A DNA stretch of 64,000 nucleotides from an uncultured Candidatus Saccharibacteria bacterium. Lineage in GTDB: Bacteria > Patescibacteriota > Minisyncoccia > Phycocordibacterales > SIBU01. Positions 4,497 to 63,521 of the stretch are shown here, in pieces. How positions within the stretch are numbered: position 1 is the stretch's first letter; each line of letters starts with the position of its first letter. The notes below the pieces were generated by a model that was not told where the DNA came from, ran no database searches, and saw only the letters and a list, made by a program, of their open reading frames with translations. Position numbers and translations under genes: made by a program. The stretch is from positions 1,653 to 65,652 of the forward strand of contig CAYSEN010000001.1 in assembly GCA_964430335.1 (NCBI GenBank), written 5' to 3'.

Positions 4497-4545
4497 ACTT
4501 GAATTAAACTGGCTTTTGAAGTATCTTACTCATGAGTTTATTTAT

Positions 4546-4618
4546 GCGCCCATAGCTCAGTTGGTAGAGCACCTGCCTTTTAAGCAGAGGGTCGTAGGTT
4601 CGATTCCTACTGGGCGCA
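4546..4618 (+). tRNA. tRNA-Lys (anticodon UUU)
   Basis: Manual fold: acceptor gcgccca/tgggcgc, D-arm gctc-agttggta-gagc, anticodon stem cctgc/gcaga with loop cTTTTaa, T-arm gtagg-ttcgatt-cctac. No encoded CCA. Confidence 0.85.
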
Positions 4619-4626
4619 CAAGACGA

Positions 4627-4654
4627 AAAAATCCGGACTGCTCCGGATTTTTTC
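4627..4654 (+). terminator. rho-independent terminator after tRNA-Lys
   Basis: aaaaaatccgga-ctgc-tccggatttttt. Confidence 0.75.
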
Positions 4655-4659
4655 GTACC

Positions 4660-4705
4660 TGTGCGAGCCGGAGCCATGTTTCGCTACCAAGCGAAACGGG
4701 CGAGG
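4660..4705. repeat. 46-nt direct repeat, copy 1 (copy 2 at 4899-4944), hairpin-containing
   Basis: Identical tgtgcgagccggagccatgtttcgctaccaagcgaaacgggcgagg at both loci. Internal hairpin gtttcgc/gcgaaac. Confidence 0.8.
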
Positions 4706-4837
4706 CAAGGTCATGAAAATTTTCGAGTGGCGACGAGAAAATTATTCCTGACCACAGGCGAAATGACCAAGCAGGTCTAAATGACCTGCGTGTAGGAATC
4801 GAACGGCGGAGTATAAAATTTTCAGCAGAAAATTTTT

Positions 4838-4900
4838 CGAGCCGGTGACCAGACAAAACTTTTTGACGAAAAAGTTTTAGTCGAGGGAGATTTCCTATTG
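4838..4900 (+). ncRNA. conserved tRNA-trailing structured element (copy A; homolog at 62056-62120)
   Basis: cgagccGGTGACCAGACAA-[hairpin aaactttttg/caaaaagttt]-TAGTCGAGGgagatttCCtaTTG aligns with 62056-62120 cgaggcGGTGACCAGACAA-[hairpin atctacaaac/gtttgtagat]-TAGTCGAGGtcgaatCCctgTTG. Flanks are conserved and the hairpin base pairs covary. Confidence 0.5.
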
Positions 4901-4944
4901 TGCGAGCCGGAGCCATGTTTCGCTACCAAGCGAAACGGGCGAGG
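4899..4944. repeat. 46-nt direct repeat, copy 2
   Basis: Exact copy of 4660-4705. Confidence 0.8.
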
Positions 4945-5026
4945 AGGGGTCGCGAGTTTCGAGGCTGACGAGCCGAAGAAAACTTGTGACCACAAGAAAG
5001 TTCACTTAATGAACTATGTTTCTACC

Positions 5027-5428
5027 CTACTCCCTCCCAATCAAATAAACCCCGAGTAATTTTCTAAAATATTCCGTTTCGGGATTAAAACACGCTTCTT
5101 TTATATGCAATAAAGGATGTGACTCCGGTGAATACTCATAATGCGCTCGGATTTCTCCATCAATAAAAAGTCTAATGTGGTACTGAAAAATCTCTTTATC
5201 GATTTTTCTCATACTCAAAACCTCTCCGGGATCTTTCCATGCAATTTTTGCCAATTCAAAACCTTGGTCAAACAAATACGCCTCTAAATCCAATCTGTTG
5301 TAATTGGCGTTTAAATGACCTAGTAAATATTTTTGTCTGAAATCATGAAAACCCAATTTTTCAACCGTTCGTATGATCGGTGGCCAAACCTGATAGGCCA
5401 AATTCCAAAAGAATCGGATTTTTTCCAT
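5027..5428 (-). CDS. hypothetical protein
   Basis: ORF track only. No motif recognised. Confidence 0.4.
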   Translation of the reverse strand: MEKIRFFWNLAYQVWPPIIRTVEKLGFHDFRQKYLLGHLNANYNRLDLEAYLFDQGFELAKIAWKDPGEVLSMRKIDKEIFQYHIRLFIDGEIRAHYEYSPESHPLLHIKEACFNPETEYFRKLLGVYLIGRE

Positions 5429-14285: not shown

Positions 14286-14321
14286 ATAAACAGGAGAAGT
14301 TGTAACCGCAACTTCTCCAAA
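14286..14321. repeat. hairpin direct repeat copy 1 (ataaacaggagaagttgtaaccgcaacttctccaaa)
   Basis: 10-bp perfect stem ggagaagttg/caacttctcc. Near-identical copy at 16058-16093. The flanks (tgataa... and ...cgacaattt) are also shared. Confidence 0.75.
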
Positions 14322-14481
14322 CCTAACGACAATTTTTTCTCGGGATAGTCGTCCTTCCCATGACACTGCATGTCAGGCCACACCATTTAGAACGGTGGCA
14401 ACTTTCCAGCATTTTTCATGCCGGACTTTTACGCACTTCTGTTACGAAGGTGGTGCGATCCTTCGGATGTCTTTCCATCAG

Positions 14482-14805
14482 TCAGAGAGTGACGCGGATA
14501 GCCACAACCTCGTCGTCCGCACTGCATTTGAATATACCAAGTACCTGTTCAAGGCCGTTTGTGCGACGTTGAAAGTCTTGGTCATCATTTGCATTGTGAC
14601 GATTGGTGGCATTTTCATGCGCAGTCTTCGGGAAAAAACAAACGCAATAAACGCTGTCGTTCCAAAAACCTGAACATGAATCCTCATCACTCTCTCCCTC
14701 CAAAATCGCTTCTGGCACATAAGTGAAATCAAATGTACCGAAGGTATTTCGAGCAATCTTTATTGCCCGAATGATCTCAGAGGGATTAAGGCTAACTTCC
14801 TTCAT
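14482..14805 (-). CDS. hypothetical protein (107 aa from MKEV start)
   Basis: Strong SD GGGAGGAG upstream of the ATG (MKEVSLNP). The ORF-track N-terminal extension is probably not translated. Confidence 0.4.
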   Translation of the reverse strand: MKEVSLNPSEIIRAIKIARNTFGTFDFTYVPEAILEGESDEDSCSGFWNDSVYCVCFFPKTAHENATNRHNANDDQDFQRRTNGLEQVLGIFKCSADDEVVAIRVTL

Positions 14806-14923
14806 GGAAGCTCTCCTCCCACTTTTTTCACTGAAGTGGCAAACCGTCGAATGCAGTTCCGCCAAACAGCTCACGTTTTACGATAGGCAGTGAGGGCCTT
14901 TGAGAGACTGACGGTCTCTCAAA

Positions 14924-15853
14924 CTACTTGAGGTACTTCGTGAGCACCTCAACCACCCGCTCGACTGAAAGGGTCGAGCTGACACCCTGAGGGCTTCCGC
15001 CGATGGTCGGGGAACCTCCCCAACCCGGCTCGAGGGTCGCCAACTCGGCGAGCGCGGACTTGATGTCCGCGTACTTGCTGGCCTCGAAGGCGCAGATCGT
15101 GAACTTCCGGTGGGGCTCTCCCGCCCCGAGCCGAAAGCTCGGGTTGAGCGCCACCACGACCGGCGCCAGCGCATAGCCAACCGACGTGGCGGCGCGGTGC
15201 GTCGACTCGACGACCGCAATGCACCCGCCGGCACAAACCTCGTGCCGAATCGCTCCGCTCTCAAGAGCGGCGATCATGTCGGCGCGCTCGCGCTCAACCT
15301 GAGCGCGATAGTTGCCCGGCTCCTCGCCGGTCAACAACCACTTTTCCATAGTGGCGACCCGCTCCCCGAGTGGGATCTTGAAGTCCGCAACCGCCGCCGC
15401 AATCGCGGCGAGCGGTCGGGACGATTCGGCCCCTGCCGAGCTATCGTCCCACGGGCTGCCCCGGGTCGGGAGGGGTTTCGGGCCGGTGTACCCGCCACGT
15501 GCGAACTTGTCGGCGGCGGCAACCATACTGATCCGATCCATCGCGGACTCGAGACCTTCGCCCTTCGCCCGGATGTTGAAGATCGCCATCGCCCCAACAC
15601 TGTCGAGGTCGGCTCGCACAGTGACCAATGTCGCCCTCTCGGCCGGGATCTCTACCGTCAGCGCGGCCTCGATGGCCGAGCTGTTGGCGTCTCCTTCCGA
15701 TCCGTGCTGGGGGTCGAGGTTGTACACGCACCGAGCCGCAAGGCTCGGGACGGTCACCTCGATTCCGAACACCTGCCCGGACGAGAAAACCTTCTCGTTC
15801 GCCTCAGAGGCGGCCGGAAGATTGCGGGGATCCAGAATTGCAAAATGAAACAT
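14924..15853 (-). CDS. hypothetical protein (309 aa, about 65% GC) with C-terminal Gly-rich motif GWGGSPTIGGSPQG
   Basis: ATG (MFHFAILDP) preceded by AGGTGA. Many overlapping ORFs here are high-GC artefacts. No confident family. Confidence 0.45.
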   Translation of the reverse strand: MFHFAILDPRNLPAASEANEKVFSSGQVFGIEVTVPSLAARCVYNLDPQHGSEGDANSSAIEAALTVEIPAERATLVTVRADLDSVGAMAIFNIRAKGEGLESAMDRISMVAAADKFARGGYTGPKPLPTRGSPWDDSSAGAESSRPLAAIAAAVADFKIPLGERVATMEKWLLTGEEPGNYRAQVERERADMIAALESGAIRHEVCAGGCIAVVESTHRAATSVGYALAPVVVALNPSFRLGAGEPHRKFTICAFEASKYADIKSALAELATLEPGWGGSPTIGGSPQGVSSTLSVERVVEVLTKYLK

Positions 15854-16057
15854 TTTGTAATTCACCTATCTTCAAACAAAAGCAAAAAAATGTGACTATT
15901 TTGGTACACACTTATTTTGTTCTCACAAAACGCGGGTTTCTAAGTCGCGAATTGTGCCTGAATCGGATTTGTCGACAAGTGAGCGGGGGTCTAGACTGTC
16001 CCCATTCACCTGTCGAAACCAATTCGTGTCTACAGACTGGCAAAATTTGTCAGCCTG

Positions 16058-16093
16058 ATAAACAGGAGAAGTTGTAACCACAACTTCTCCAAA
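16058..16093. repeat. hairpin direct repeat copy 2 (ataaacaggagaagttgtaaccacaacttctccaaa)
   Basis: See copy 1. There is one loop substitution (g to a). Confidence 0.75.
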
Positions 16094-21001: not shown

Positions 21002-21478
21002 ATGAAAATCCTCGCTGTAGACCCGGGGTATGAAAAAATCGGCATAGCCATACTCGAGAAAAATTCTGGCAAAGAAGAGTTGGTTTTTTCTGAGTGTTTT
21101 AAAACCTCCCGAAAAATTTCTCCCCAAGAAAGACTTCTCTCCCTTGGACAAGAGGTTATGAGGGTTATTGAGGAATATCATCCATCAGCTCTTTCGATTG
21201 AAAAACTTTTTTTTGAAGTAAATCAAAAAACTGCCATGCTGGTCTCAGAAGCAAGGGGTGTAATTATCTACGAAGCCGTGAAGGCGGGCTTAAAAATTGA
21301 GGAATTTACACCACTTCAAGTTAAAGTGGCGGTAACTAGCTACGGTAAGAGTTCGAAGAACCAAGTGAAATATATGGTTGATAGGTTGATCAAAATAAAA
21401 AAATCTATAAAAGAGGATGACGAATATGATGCTATTGCACTTGGTTTAACTTATTTTGCTTGTGTAGGCAAAAACTAA
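21002..21478 (+). CDS. ruvC: Holliday junction resolvase RuvC
   Basis: ILAVDPGYEKIGIAI N-terminal catalytic motif. About 158 aa. Confidence 0.8.
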   Translation: MKILAVDPGYEKIGIAILEKNSGKEELVFSECFKTSRKISPQERLLSLGQEVMRVIEEYHPSALSIEKLFFEVNQKTAMLVSEARGVIIYEAVKAGLKIEEFTPLQVKVAVTSYGKSSKNQVKYMVDRLIKIKKSIKEDDEYDAIALGLTYFACVGKN

Positions 21479-61904: not shown

Positions 61905-61976
61905 GCTCTCGTGGTGAAATGGATATCACAACGGTCTTCGGAACCGTCGTTGGGGGTTCGAATCCCTCCGGGAGCA
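61905..61976 (+). tRNA. tRNA-Arg (anticodon UCG)
   Basis: Acceptor gctctcg/cgggagc (one G-U), anticodon stem acggt/accgt with loop cTTCGga, T-arm ggggg-ttcgaat-ccctc. Overlapping ORF 61892-62095 is spurious. Confidence 0.8.
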
Positions 61977-62055
61977 CAATAAGCGAAGCTATATTGCTCC
62001 CGGAGGGATTCGAGCGCCGGAGCACACGAAGTCCAGACTCAGCAGAGTTTGGGTG

Positions 62056-62120
62056 CGAGGCGGTGACCAGACAATCTACAAACGGCGGTTTGTAGATTAG
62101 TCGAGGTCGAATCCCTGTTG
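62056..62120 (+). ncRNA. conserved tRNA-trailing structured element (copy B)
   Basis: See copy A at 4838-4900. Confidence 0.5.
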
Positions 62121-62191: not shown

Positions 62192-62262
62192 GCGGGTATG
62201 GTTTAGTGGTAGAATGGTTCCTTGCCAAGGAACAGACGGGAGTTCGATTCTCCCTACCCGCA
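62192..62262 (+). tRNA. tRNA-Gly (anticodon GCC)
   Basis: Acceptor gcgggta/tacccgc, anticodon stem gttcc/ggaac with loop tTGCCaa, T-arm gggag-ttcgatt-ctccc. Confidence 0.85.
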
Positions 62263-62373
62263 CAACAGTAAGGGTAAGGAGGCATGTTATGCCTCCGTGG
62301 GAGAATCGAAGCCCGATTGAGCCGAGCTTCCTAGCGAGCCAATTGGGGTACTGAAACTGTAAGTTTAGATTCT

Positions 62374-62392
62374 CCCTACCCGCACATTGTAG
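62374..62392 (+). repeat. 19-nt direct duplicate of tRNA-Gly 3' end (gattctccctacccgcaca), followed by a terminator hairpin at 62396-62423
   Basis: Exact copy of 62244-62262. The sequence between contains an inverted T-arm copy gggagaatcgaa. Confidence 0.7.
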
Positions 62393-62773
62393 AAAAACCG
62401 CTTTTATAGCGGTTTTTCTGTTACGCACTGGGCTGTTTGACGAAACATGGTGCTTTTGTTTACAGCGTGCATAAAAGCAGTCATAAGAACGTGTTGAAAT
62501 AGGACATTTTTAAAAGACCTTAGATTTTGGACATTCGTCACTATGTGACCACTAAATATCTCTTTGATGACTCATAAGGTCCGGGATTATATTCATTGTT
62601 ATCAACAAAAAACCTCAAAACTGTGGATAACTATGTGAACTAGTGTATAAGAGACAGTTTACCGCCAAAAGAGACATTCATCTCTTTCTGCCTTTTAATG
62701 GCCTAAAATATGGCTATTACAGGTATTTGTCCGATTCCGTTATCAGTTTCACGTGAAAAAAATGTGATAAAGT

Positions 62774-63322: not shown

Positions 63323-63393
63323 CGGGGCGTGGTGTAACGGTAGCATAAACGCTTTGGGAGCGTTCAGTCCGAGTTCAAATCTCGGCGCCCCGA
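63323..63393 (+). tRNA. tRNA-Pro (anticodon UGG)
   Basis: Acceptor cggggcg/cgccccg, anticodon stem aacgc/gcgtt with loop tTTGGga, T-arm ccgag-ttcaaat-ctcgg. Confidence 0.8.
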
Positions 63394-63521
63394 CGAAACA
63401 CAATAGTATTTAATGGACAAATGACAGGACGAGCGAGGAGTATCCTTGGCCCAAAGGGCTAAGTTCAAGTTTATGTCTCATCGATCCGTAGAGAATATTA
63501 TTTCTAGAACAAGCAAACACA

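Follow-up and report, generated by a model that had tools for sequence, protein, structure and literature searches.

Structured RNA units in tandem behind tRNA genes of Patescibacteria

The window analysed here, a stretch of 64,000 nucleotides (nt) from an uncultured bacterium labelled Candidatus Saccharibacteria (assembly GCA_964430335.1, contig CAYSEN010000001.1, positions 1,653 to 65,652 of the forward strand), carries directly 3' of a tRNA-Lys gene a tandem array of three units of one structured RNA module, two of a type termed S flanking one of a type termed M. The units belong to an RNA family that is widespread, strongly supported and, as far as can be told, undescribed, and the module looks like a new RNA class. 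The explanation favoured here, at a probability of about 0.45, is that the array is a Patescibacteria-specific structured RNA module built onto tRNA 3' ends, in effect a tRNA-trailer or spacer RNA with tRNA-mimicking ends. The region had earlier been described, from the sequence alone, as a direct repeat (M1), a spacer, a second element (M2) and a further copy of M1; this description is referred to below as the original prediction. The features of the locus are as follows.

4546-4619, + strand: tRNA-Lys(UUU), identified by ARAGORN and by Rfam (tRNA, 75.6 bits)
4615-4665, + strand: post-tRNA hairpin with perfect 15-nt arms (4623-4637 and 4642-4656), loop CUGC (4638-4641), an A-tract and a U-tract
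4660-4756, + strand: S-type unit A; covariance model R1, 108.9 bits, E = 1.7e-25; structure from an alignment of 78 units
4757-4898, + strand: M-type unit, from sequence and fold; contains the 'spacer' and 'M2' of the original prediction
4899-4994, + strand: S-type unit B; R1, 82.9 bits, E = 5.4e-19; its first 46 nt are those of unit A (M1)
5000-5023, + strand: terminal hairpin GUUCA-CUUAA-UGAAC (5000-5014) followed by UAUGUUUCU, from sequence and fold

The last bases of the tRNA-Lys, CGCAC (4615-4619), form the base of the downstream hairpin, the stem of which is extended by pairing of the tRNA 3' end, CGCAC(A), with the (U)GUGCG that opens unit A. The part of the hairpin between 4623 and 4656 has CCGG at its top and a run of six U residues; the U-run is paired with the A-run, and hence the structure was not listed by a terminator scan. 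A terminator had been proposed to follow the tRNA, and the hairpin is indeed present, but termination alone would not describe it, the loop being conserved and the stem continuing on one side into the tRNA and on the other into the unit. The CUGC loop was not found in the other terminator-like hairpins of the window.

In unit A the strand of the closing helix (P0) is UGUG, the first arm reads [GCC]GGA[GCC]AU-P1-G[GGC]GA[GGC] with the P1 hairpin at 4678-4697, and the long arm (P2) extends from GGUCA (4709-4713) to UGACC (4749-4753) and is followed by the tail ACA. The 46-nt repeat M1 is exact at 4660-4705 and 4899-4944, at a spacing of 239 nt, with none expected in 100 shuffles. It constitutes the 5' half (closing strand and arm 1) of a unit of about 96 nt, and the 'spacer' together with M2 makes up a third, variant unit; the elements of the M1-spacer-M2-M1 description are therefore all present, but their parsing has to be revised. 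The P0 strand and arm 1 of units A and B are identical, being M1, and their long arms P2 have diverged via compensatory changes, a mosaic which points to gene conversion or unequal crossover and not to a fresh duplication.

The M unit begins with a hairpin at 4771-4789, followed at 4792-4804 by an anti-T-arm, GUAGGAAUCGAAC; this is the element gtaggaatcgaac that had been recognised as the exact reverse complement of the tRNA-Lys T-arm (4598-4610), and the match is as described. Arm 1 follows, with [GGC]GGAG at 4805-4811, P1 at 4815-4837 (loop AGCA) and CGA[GCC] at 4838-4843, then the junction GGUG (4844-4847) and a P2 of the form ACC-A-GAC-hairpin-GUC (4848-4882, loop GACG at 4865-4868). M2, which had been given as GGTGACCAGACAA-hairpin-TAGTCGAGG, is located at 4844-4887. 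The 3' part of the unit holds a degenerate sense copy of the T-arm, GAUUUCCUAU, at 4889-4898. An orthologue of this M unit is present in the related locus L011 (loci found in the searches are denoted by L and a number).

The terminal hairpin (5000-5023) is a possible end of the transcript of tRNA and array, at which it would act as terminator, and it abuts the stop codon of a convergent gene for a protein of 133 amino acids (aa) at 5027-5428 on the - strand. The fold energy is -143 kcal/mol on the + strand (z = -6.5) and -123.5 kcal/mol on the - strand, and the GC content of the tRNA-Lys trailer region is above that of its surroundings. The open reading frame (ORF) at 4557-4916 on the - strand (119 aa) had rightly been regarded as spurious, as it has no Pfam match, lies partly antisense to the tRNA and is interrupted by a natural indel of 239 bp (see below). 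Three ORFs across the region gave no significant Pfam match (best E = 0.054).

That each unit is a three-way junction on the + strand, composed of arm 1, the long arm P2 and the closing helix P0, is strongly supported by the alignment of 78 units (MAFFT). The common layout is 5' (U)GUGCGA-[GNC]-GGA-[GNN]-AU-P1 hairpin-[NNC]-GA-[GN'C]-R-G-[GGUCG...P2...UGACC]-ACA, with a conserved arm 1 of the form [GNC]-GGAG-hairpin-CGAG-[GN'C] that contains a GA-rich internal loop. The conserved nucleotides lie in the junctions and internal loops and the helices are variable. Pairs are formed in 95.0% of the alignment cells; if the 3' partners are shifted by 1-3 columns, this figure drops to 37-49% and the covariation score, 0.49 for the true partners, to 0.07-0.15. 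None of 500 shuffles attained the score of 0.49. Both sides have changed in 22 of the 33 pairs. The N/N' pair, for instance, occurs as CG (46), GC (23), AU (17), UG (3), UA (3) and GU (1), with only 2 mismatches in 95. One pair is G.U in 75 of the 78 units, and G.U cells exceed 100 as against about 15 A.C cells; this near-invariant pair and the excess of G.U over A.C identify the functional strand as the + strand of the window, acting as RNA. The scan pattern that supplied the units fixed GUGCGAG and UGACCACA, and P0 (UGU/ACA) cannot be judged from this alignment. Among thirteen M units, too, compensatory changes are seen; they affect [GNC]/[GN'C], both hairpins and helix b (GAC/GUC, GCC/GGC, GGC/GCC).

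The loops are conserved as well, with CUGC in the post-tRNA hairpin in 50 of 80 loci, AGCA or AGUA in P1 in 41 and GACG in P2 in 45. No covariation between loops was detected in the 80 loci, and a kissing interaction of the CUGC loop with the P1 loop (AGCA) was rejected, the complementarity being 2.20 as compared with 2.23 in shuffled pairings.

The units are tied to tRNA genes by position and by sequence. In most loci a unit starts 39-42 nt past a tRNA on the same strand (Lys, Val, Ile, Arg, Tyr and others), and the remainder occupy the second or third place in an array or the end of a contig; units without a tRNA nearby are exceptional, L086 being the only clear case. The spacer of about 40 nt is the long hairpin, with a stem that takes in the closing bases of the tRNA as well as the opening bases of the unit, and at least six consecutive pairs between tRNA end and unit start are found in 66 of 81 loci. 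The perfect stems at tRNA ends can reach 23-33 bp. In six loci (L040, L053, L054, L110, L091 and L023) a further tRNA on the same strand follows 15-38 nt past the unit, so that the hairpin must be read through there and the unit forms a spacer inside a tRNA operon. This spacing suggests that the units are co-transcribed with the upstream tRNA. The start of the unit changes with the end of the tRNA, as the following combinations illustrate.

tRNA end CGCACA, unit start UGUGCG: 24 loci
tRNA end CGCACU, unit start AGUGCG: 6 loci
tRNA end CGCACCG, unit start CGGUGCG: 2 loci
tRNA end CGCACCAA, unit start UUGGUGCG: 2 loci
tRNA-Ala end UCCACA, unit start UGUGGA: L054
tRNA-Glu end UCACCG, unit start CGGUGA: L037
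tRNA-Trp end CUCGCC, unit start GGCGAG: L050

In the last of these the 3' end of the unit, ..ACCGCC, likewise matches the end of the tRNA-Trp. Given this covariation, GUGCGAG is to be read as the antisense of the most frequent tRNA end and not as an invariant motif, and the CACA at the 3' terminus as a sense copy of minimal length. P0 consists of a 5' strand that is antisense to the 3' end of the upstream tRNA and a 3' strand that repeats this end in sense over 4-21 nt. Among the 195 tRNAs in the related loci, exact inverted copies of the tRNA 3' end of at least 10 nt occur downstream (within 320 nt) of 42 and upstream of none, and direct copies of at least 10 nt occur downstream of 40 and upstream of 6. 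The T-arm match behind the tRNA-Lys is consequently no coincidence, but one case of a general rule. The inverted copy is typically found at +20 to +80 after the tRNA and the direct copy at +100 to +170. The module is present at 40 of 108 bystander tRNAs, that is, those that played no part in picking the loci.

Two further tRNA loci of the window carry such elements.

61905-62117, + strand: tRNA-Arg(UCG) locus with an M unit; R1, 34.6 bits, E = 6.4e-07, match at 62004-62120; also from sequence and fold
62192-62419, + strand: tRNA-Gly(GCC) locus; from sequence, with a 12-nt inverted and an 18-nt direct copy, and from a fold with a tRNA-like closing helix

At the former, the tRNA-Arg(UCG) (61905-61977) is followed by a 19-nt antisense copy of its own 3' end, UGCUCCCGGAGGGAUUCGA, at 61995-62013, arm 1 at 62016-62061, GGUG-ACC-A-GAC-hairpin-GUC at 62062-62102 and a 10-nt sense copy, UCGAAUCCCU, at 62107-62116. 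At the latter, the tRNA-Gly(GCC) (62192-62263) and a hairpin are followed by a 12-nt antisense copy, GGGAGAAUCGAA, at 62299-62310, a reduced internal domain, an 18-nt sense copy of the tRNA 3' end, GAUUCUCCCUACCCGCAC, at 62368-62385, and an ordinary terminator at 62391-62419. The tRNA-Gly element was not detected by model R1, and no comparable element stands behind the tRNA-Pro of the window (63323-63394). The paralogues at the tRNA-Lys and the other loci differ by compensatory changes. Fully developed M loci are found in L133 (with a 15-nt direct repeat), L032 and L108, where the order is tRNA, hairpin 1, anti-acceptor, hairpin 2 (CUGC loop), anti-T-arm, arm 1, GGUG, P2, sense T-stem, acceptor and discriminator, hairpin and S unit. 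In predicted folds of the Gly locus, the Arg locus and L133 the M RNA would close with a helix resembling the acceptor and T-stem of the neighbouring tRNA.

The extent of the family was assessed with a pattern scan (GTGCGAGNCGGAG-N60-90-TGACCACA, one genome per species), which gave at least 120 loci. Among the matches listed, about 95 have the features of the family and all of these are Patescibacteria, with host labels including Nomura-, Taylor-, Kaiser-, Adler-, Yonath- and Zambryski-bacteria, Paceibacterota, Minisyncoccia and records labelled Saccharibacteria. The last label may be loose, as L104, which bears it, is here near-identical to the Parcubacteria genome L116. About 28 listed matches fall in other phyla and lack any other family feature; about 34 chance matches would be expected by our own calculation. 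The covariance model R1, built from the 78 units, gave 150 hits in 96 sources, so that the homologue search proposed with the original prediction yielded many relatives.

The Rfam search proposed alongside it assigned the region to no known family: at gathering thresholds, Rfam 15 reported only tRNAs in the whole window. At E <= 10 on 4500-5100 the best non-tRNA matches were RT-11 (20.1 bits, 143.5 needed) and Hammerhead_II (17.6 bits, 37 needed), neither of which recurred in eight related loci (Rfam, E <= 1), and both are dismissed as identities, being at chance level and non-recurrent. A type II hammerhead has the core CUGANGA ... GAAA, three helices and an NUH cleavage site. Unit B contains CUGACGA and CGAAAC, but the proposed stem III, with two non-pairs, cannot form, and stem II would be of only 2 bp; where CUGANGA would be expected, unit A has GCGACGA, and the core bases are not kept in the family consensus. 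Twister, hepatitis delta virus (HDV)-like, pistol and hatchet ribozymes, the signal recognition particle (SRP) RNA, 6S, RNase P and T-box RNAs were also compared by eye with the region and set aside, as none of them had Rfam support. No match to SRP/4.5S, 6S, RNase P, transfer-messenger RNA (tmRNA) or 5S RNA was obtained on the tRNA-Lys region even at E <= 10. These essential small RNAs are normally single copy. The units described here occur in tandem and at several tRNA loci per genome, with three loci in the window and at least four units within 5.8 kb of L131.

Sub-threshold Rfam matches to sX4, a proteobacterial small RNA (sRNA), were seen in L133 (4824-5001, 41.7 bits), L032 (1027-1202, 32.9 bits) and L116 (4186-4322, 26.5 bits); they cover a tRNA-Ser and about 80 nt of trailer and are probably driven by the tRNA part.

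As to a phage origin, 2.9 million viral contigs gave one match to the S pattern, without an adjoining tRNA. This match lies in L136 (106-205; IMGVR_UViG_3300045988_075897), and the stored locus begins at contig base 21074 and is, according to ARAGORN, free of tRNAs over its first 3 kb; the match may come either from a phage that bears a copy or from a piece of Patescibacteria DNA that was classified as viral. In the full-text literature outside subscription journals, searched with the conserved sequences included, no description of the module was found; the one related paper deals with group I introns in anticodon loops of Patescibacteria tRNAs (PMC13011429).

The neighbouring genes in the window are those for a Mur ligase, Fpg, SpoU, DoxX, holA, polA and tsaE. 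Across about 90 loci there is no recurrent neighbour other than housekeeping genes. The tRNA-Lys locus itself is syntenic, with holA, polA, SpoU, DoxX and TsaD, and its position beside holA, polA and DoxX is common to about 16 loci. The convergent gene at 5027-5428 encodes a conserved protein of 133-137 aa with no Pfam domain that always follows holA in L011, L013 and L014; it was considered as a partner of the RNA and rejected, since in L013 and L014 it remains with holA while the RNA is elsewhere. The match to RT-11 had prompted a search for a nearby reverse transcriptase or retron, which was also discarded as all neighbours are housekeeping genes.

Elsewhere in the window, a segment of 1.77 kb with a GC content of 0.54 (genome about 0.39) lies at 14286-16093 between 36-nt direct repeats (14286-14321 and 16058-16093), each of which is a hairpin, GGAGAAGTTGTAACCRCAACTTCTCC. 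It contains only overlapping ORFs in several frames and has neither a Pfam nor an Rfam match.

The number of units varies. In five Joint Genome Institute (JGI) contigs of the same species (L001-L005) the flanks are 100% identical and a single S unit, unit B, is present, exactly one 239-bp period (S and M) between the M1 copies being absent (4668-4906 of the window). The difference is either a population indel or a repeat collapse. Two Logan contigs (k=31) end inside M1, one of them (L007) at M1 position 17, where a repeated M1 would branch the assembly graph. A similar three-unit array is found in L025, from another species with an identical tRNA-Lys 3' end, and the anti-T-arm of its second unit is at the same offset. 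In L011 (GCA_005804565.1; holA 57% identical) the block of tRNA-Lys and M unit at 4707-5038 is inverted relative to its flanks, with polA, holA and the small ORF on one side and DoxX on the other. The tRNA loci of this family are, to judge from their sequences, recombination hot spots.

A separate observation concerns L104 (6240-6400, - strand), where an intact tRNA-Val with an encoded CCA and a different acceptor stem stands about 20 nt upstream of an older, 5'-truncated tRNA-Val, which keeps its original 3' end, hairpin and S unit (compare L116). It looks like a replacement of the 5' part of the tRNA by incoming DNA.

Under the explanation favoured here, the units would be transcribed together with the tRNA, as trailer or inter-tRNA spacer. 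In the nascent transcript the antisense strand would first lengthen the post-tRNA hairpin across the 3' processing site of the tRNA; once the 3' end of the unit had been made, the same strand would close P0, which in M units copies the stack of acceptor and T-stem. Such tRNA-like ends may then allow RNase Z, RNase P and, on the long stem, possibly RNase III to release a stable RNA of 95-140 nt, in which arm 1 and the conserved loops (CUGC, AGCA, GACG) would offer a putative binding surface for a partner. The arrays would grow, shrink and homogenise through recombination between units and between the copies of tRNA ends. An sRNA, a processed tRNA trailer and a small mobile or attachment (att)-associated element targeting tRNA genes had all been suggested in the original prediction. 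A conserved structured RNA physically linked to tRNA genes is borne out, as is the connection with tRNA 3' ends behind the att-like intuition, and a trailer, with co-transcription presumed, fits best.

Of the known systems, an RNA derived from a tRNA spacer and closed by a tRNA-like helix comes nearest to how the module would work. Its repeats are att-like, as in integrated elements, and its guide strand recalls self-splicing introns, but it lacks defining traits of each of these families. RNAs from the external and internal transcribed spacers (ETS and ITS) of tRNA precursors, such as 3'ETS-leuZ of E. coli, and other sRNAs cut from precursors are likewise non-coding RNAs directly 3' of or between tRNAs and are released from the tRNA transcript by tRNA-processing nucleases, as would be the case here. 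However, RNAs of the 3'ETS-leuZ type are short, lineage-restricted and weakly structured and pair with other sRNAs, whereas the module is a three-way junction of 95-140 nt with covariation on the scale of a phylum, tandem organisation and both antisense and sense copies of the tRNA end. The tRNA-like structures and RNase P guide mimics (the tRNA-like domain of tmRNA, mascRNA, external guide sequences) resemble it in that their 5' and 3' strands imitate the acceptor and T-stem stack and leave a single-stranded 3' tail, the feature by which tRNA-processing enzymes recognise their substrates, and a coaxial acceptor-like and T-like helix is present in the predicted M-unit folds of the Gly, Arg and L133 loci. 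The module differs in having a conserved junction instead of an intact T-loop and a helix that copies the neighbouring tRNA and not a generic one, and its recognition by RNase P, RNase Z or the CCA enzyme is putative.

Several observations weigh against this explanation. The case for co-transcription is one of spacing, and the post-tRNA hairpin resembles an efficient intrinsic terminator; full termination there would require promoters for the units, of which none was seen. A partner protein or ligand is putative, the neighbours are housekeeping genes with none consistently near the units, and processing by RNase Z, RNase P and RNase III is suggested by analogy. The M unit of the window has no second copy in two metagenome scans, and the three-unit allele has so far been seen in the window only. 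Finally, the sense copy often precedes what seems to be the original downstream context of the tRNA (the terminator at the Gly locus, the hairpin and S unit in L133), which indicates an origin by insertion and would suit a selfish element. The two ideas are compatible, in that modules could have spread by insertion at tRNA ends and then been kept as functional RNAs.

A non-autonomous mobile or integrative mini-element at tRNA 3' ends is rather unlikely, and is the best placed of the alternatives. Such an element would insert at the segment from the T-loop to the 3' end and bring a replacement tRNA end, the original end being left as a direct repeat in the manner of attL and attR; successive insertions would build the arrays, and the RNA structure would serve its own propagation or processing. 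The att duplications of tRNA-targeting integrases (prophages, integrative and conjugative elements (ICEs), integrase-less remnants of the CIME type) offer a parallel: a direct repeat running from the T-loop to the 3' end flanks the insert, the proximal tRNA is intact and the content varies between strains. Direct repeats of 10-21 nt of the tRNA 3' end flank the M units (18 nt at Gly, 10 nt at Arg, 15 nt in L133), and the distal copy is followed by a terminator (Gly locus) or by a hairpin and S unit (L133, L094, L127), as behind an uninterrupted tRNA. Presence and absence differ between L116 and L133 at the tRNA-Val and between the window and L001-L005; CCA is encoded in the proximal tRNA copy alone in L127 and L104; and tRNA loci have been rearranged (the inversion in L011, the replaced tRNA-Val in L104). 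However, the inserts are only 95-190 nt long and not of kilobase size, and no integrase, other recombinase or any other gene lies in or beside them. The copies within a genome are old, with compensatory differences, and are not near-identical recent insertions, and the same locus is occupied across genera. The antisense copy of the tRNA end within the unit is unexplained by a plain att model, and the 239-bp indel of the window is bounded by the M1 unit repeats and not by tRNA-end repeats. Strand-specific covariation and deep divergence of paralogues point to selection on an RNA and not on recombination sites. Group II introns, the usual vehicle of retro-mobility, are moreover reported to be absent from Patescibacteria (PMC13011429).

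A cis-acting device for processing of the tRNA precursor is improbable. Here the antisense guide would pair across the junction of discriminator and trailer, letting the conserved junction of the unit effect a cut at this point; the RNA would either be a small ribozyme of a new kind and make the cut itself, or recruit a nuclease, for example RNase III or RNase P. It is in favour of this view that the complementarity always spans the 3' processing site of the tRNA and covaries with it, that conserved junctions and internal loops with variable helices are found in small ribozymes, that a tandem head-to-tail order is typical of self-processing RNAs and that perfect stems of 23-33 bp would be substrates of RNase III. 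No known ribozyme class was matched, however, and the hammerhead core is not satisfied; presence of the module shows no association with tRNAs lacking an encoded CCA (p = 0.39); and the second and third units of arrays lack a preceding tRNA. As the module accompanies only about a third or more of the tRNAs, it cannot be a general maturation route.

Equally improbable is the related idea that the units form a new class of base-pair-guided catalytic or self-propagating RNAs, small ribozymes with a three-way junction whose 5' antisense strand would serve as internal guide to tRNA 3' ends, either to cleave or mature the precursor at the discriminator or to copy itself behind tRNA genes without an element-encoded protein. 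It would account for the tRNA-specific guide, the regenerated 3' target and the tandem arrays. The units themselves recall the guides of self-splicing introns (P1/P10 in group I; exon- and intron-binding sites, EBS-IBS, in group II, with IIC introns following terminator hairpins), in that a 5' region pairs with the directly upstream sequence at a tRNA or terminator hairpin, and the GUGCG with which S units start is similar to GUGYG, the 5' consensus of group II. A group I intron is characterised by a P1 U.G at the 5' splice site, a P3-P9 catalytic core and interruption of a host gene, and a group IIC intron by a 5' GUGYG, the AGC triad of domain V, the branch A of domain VI and a length of over 400 nt. 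The units, at 95-190 nt, are far too small and have no P3-P9 core, domain V/VI or splice-site U.G, and the tRNA is intact without splicing. A group I intron was rejected as there is no Intron_gpI match at E <= 10 and no U.G in the helix of tRNA and antisense strand, and a group II (IIC) intron as there is no Rfam match and the bulge of arm 1 is on the strand opposite to that of domain V. GUGCG changes with the tRNA end (GUGGA, GGUGA, GGCGAG) and therefore belongs to a guide strand, unlike the consensus of a splice site. In Patescibacteria, tRNAs commonly contain group I introns, located in the anticodon loops (PMC13011429).

Slightly less probable again is a free-standing trans-acting sRNA or protein sponge that makes use of strong tRNA promoters, the tRNA complementarity being a by-product of terminator design. 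The loops CUGC, AGCA and GACG and the GA-rich internal loops do resemble protein-binding sites, and multi-copy arrays are a feature of sponge RNAs, but the 10-21 nt copies, in both orientations, of the specific neighbouring tRNA in M units and the covariation of the unit 5' end with the acceptor end of the tRNA would be left unexplained, and units away from tRNAs are very rare (L086). The array also recalls those of type III toxin-antitoxin systems (ToxI-like), which consist of head-to-tail structured RNA repeats behind a hairpin; ToxI repeats, however, are of 34-45 nt, are processed by the adjacent toxin endoribonuclease and precede its gene. An antitoxin array was rejected in view of units of 92-140 nt, a downstream gene that is convergent, encodes 133 aa without a Pfam match and travels with holA, and the absence of a toxin gene near the arrays.

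A feature of the DNA only (palindromes for recombination, replication or termination) or a product of chance or assembly is very improbable, for although long perfect palindromes overlap the tRNA ends and the three-unit allele is unique to the window, G.U pairs are found on one strand only (more than 100 cells, with A.C in about 15), three-way junctions that are not palindromic have undergone compensatory changes, homologues number in the hundreds, a comparable three-unit array exists in L025, and the Logan contigs break inside M1 where a repeat would branch the graph.

The genomes of Patescibacteria are tiny and streamlined, and yet a third or more of the examinable tRNA genes in the sampled genomes carry an unannotated structured RNA module of 100-200 nt, the covariation of which is among the clearest one can hope for. 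To our knowledge, no other RNA has a closing helix made from antisense and sense copies of the 3' end of the preceding tRNA, and the coupling of the module to tRNA 3' ends is, as far as can be told, unprecedented. A covariance model for the module would clear hundreds of "intergenic" gaps and spurious ORFs from Patescibacteria annotations. If the module is a processing or quality-control device, the view of tRNA maturation in a major part of the bacterial tree would have to be revised; if it is a selfish RNA-guided element, it would represent a new type of mobile element; and in the case of a stable tRNA mimic, enzymes that depend on tRNA may be fed or regulated by it.

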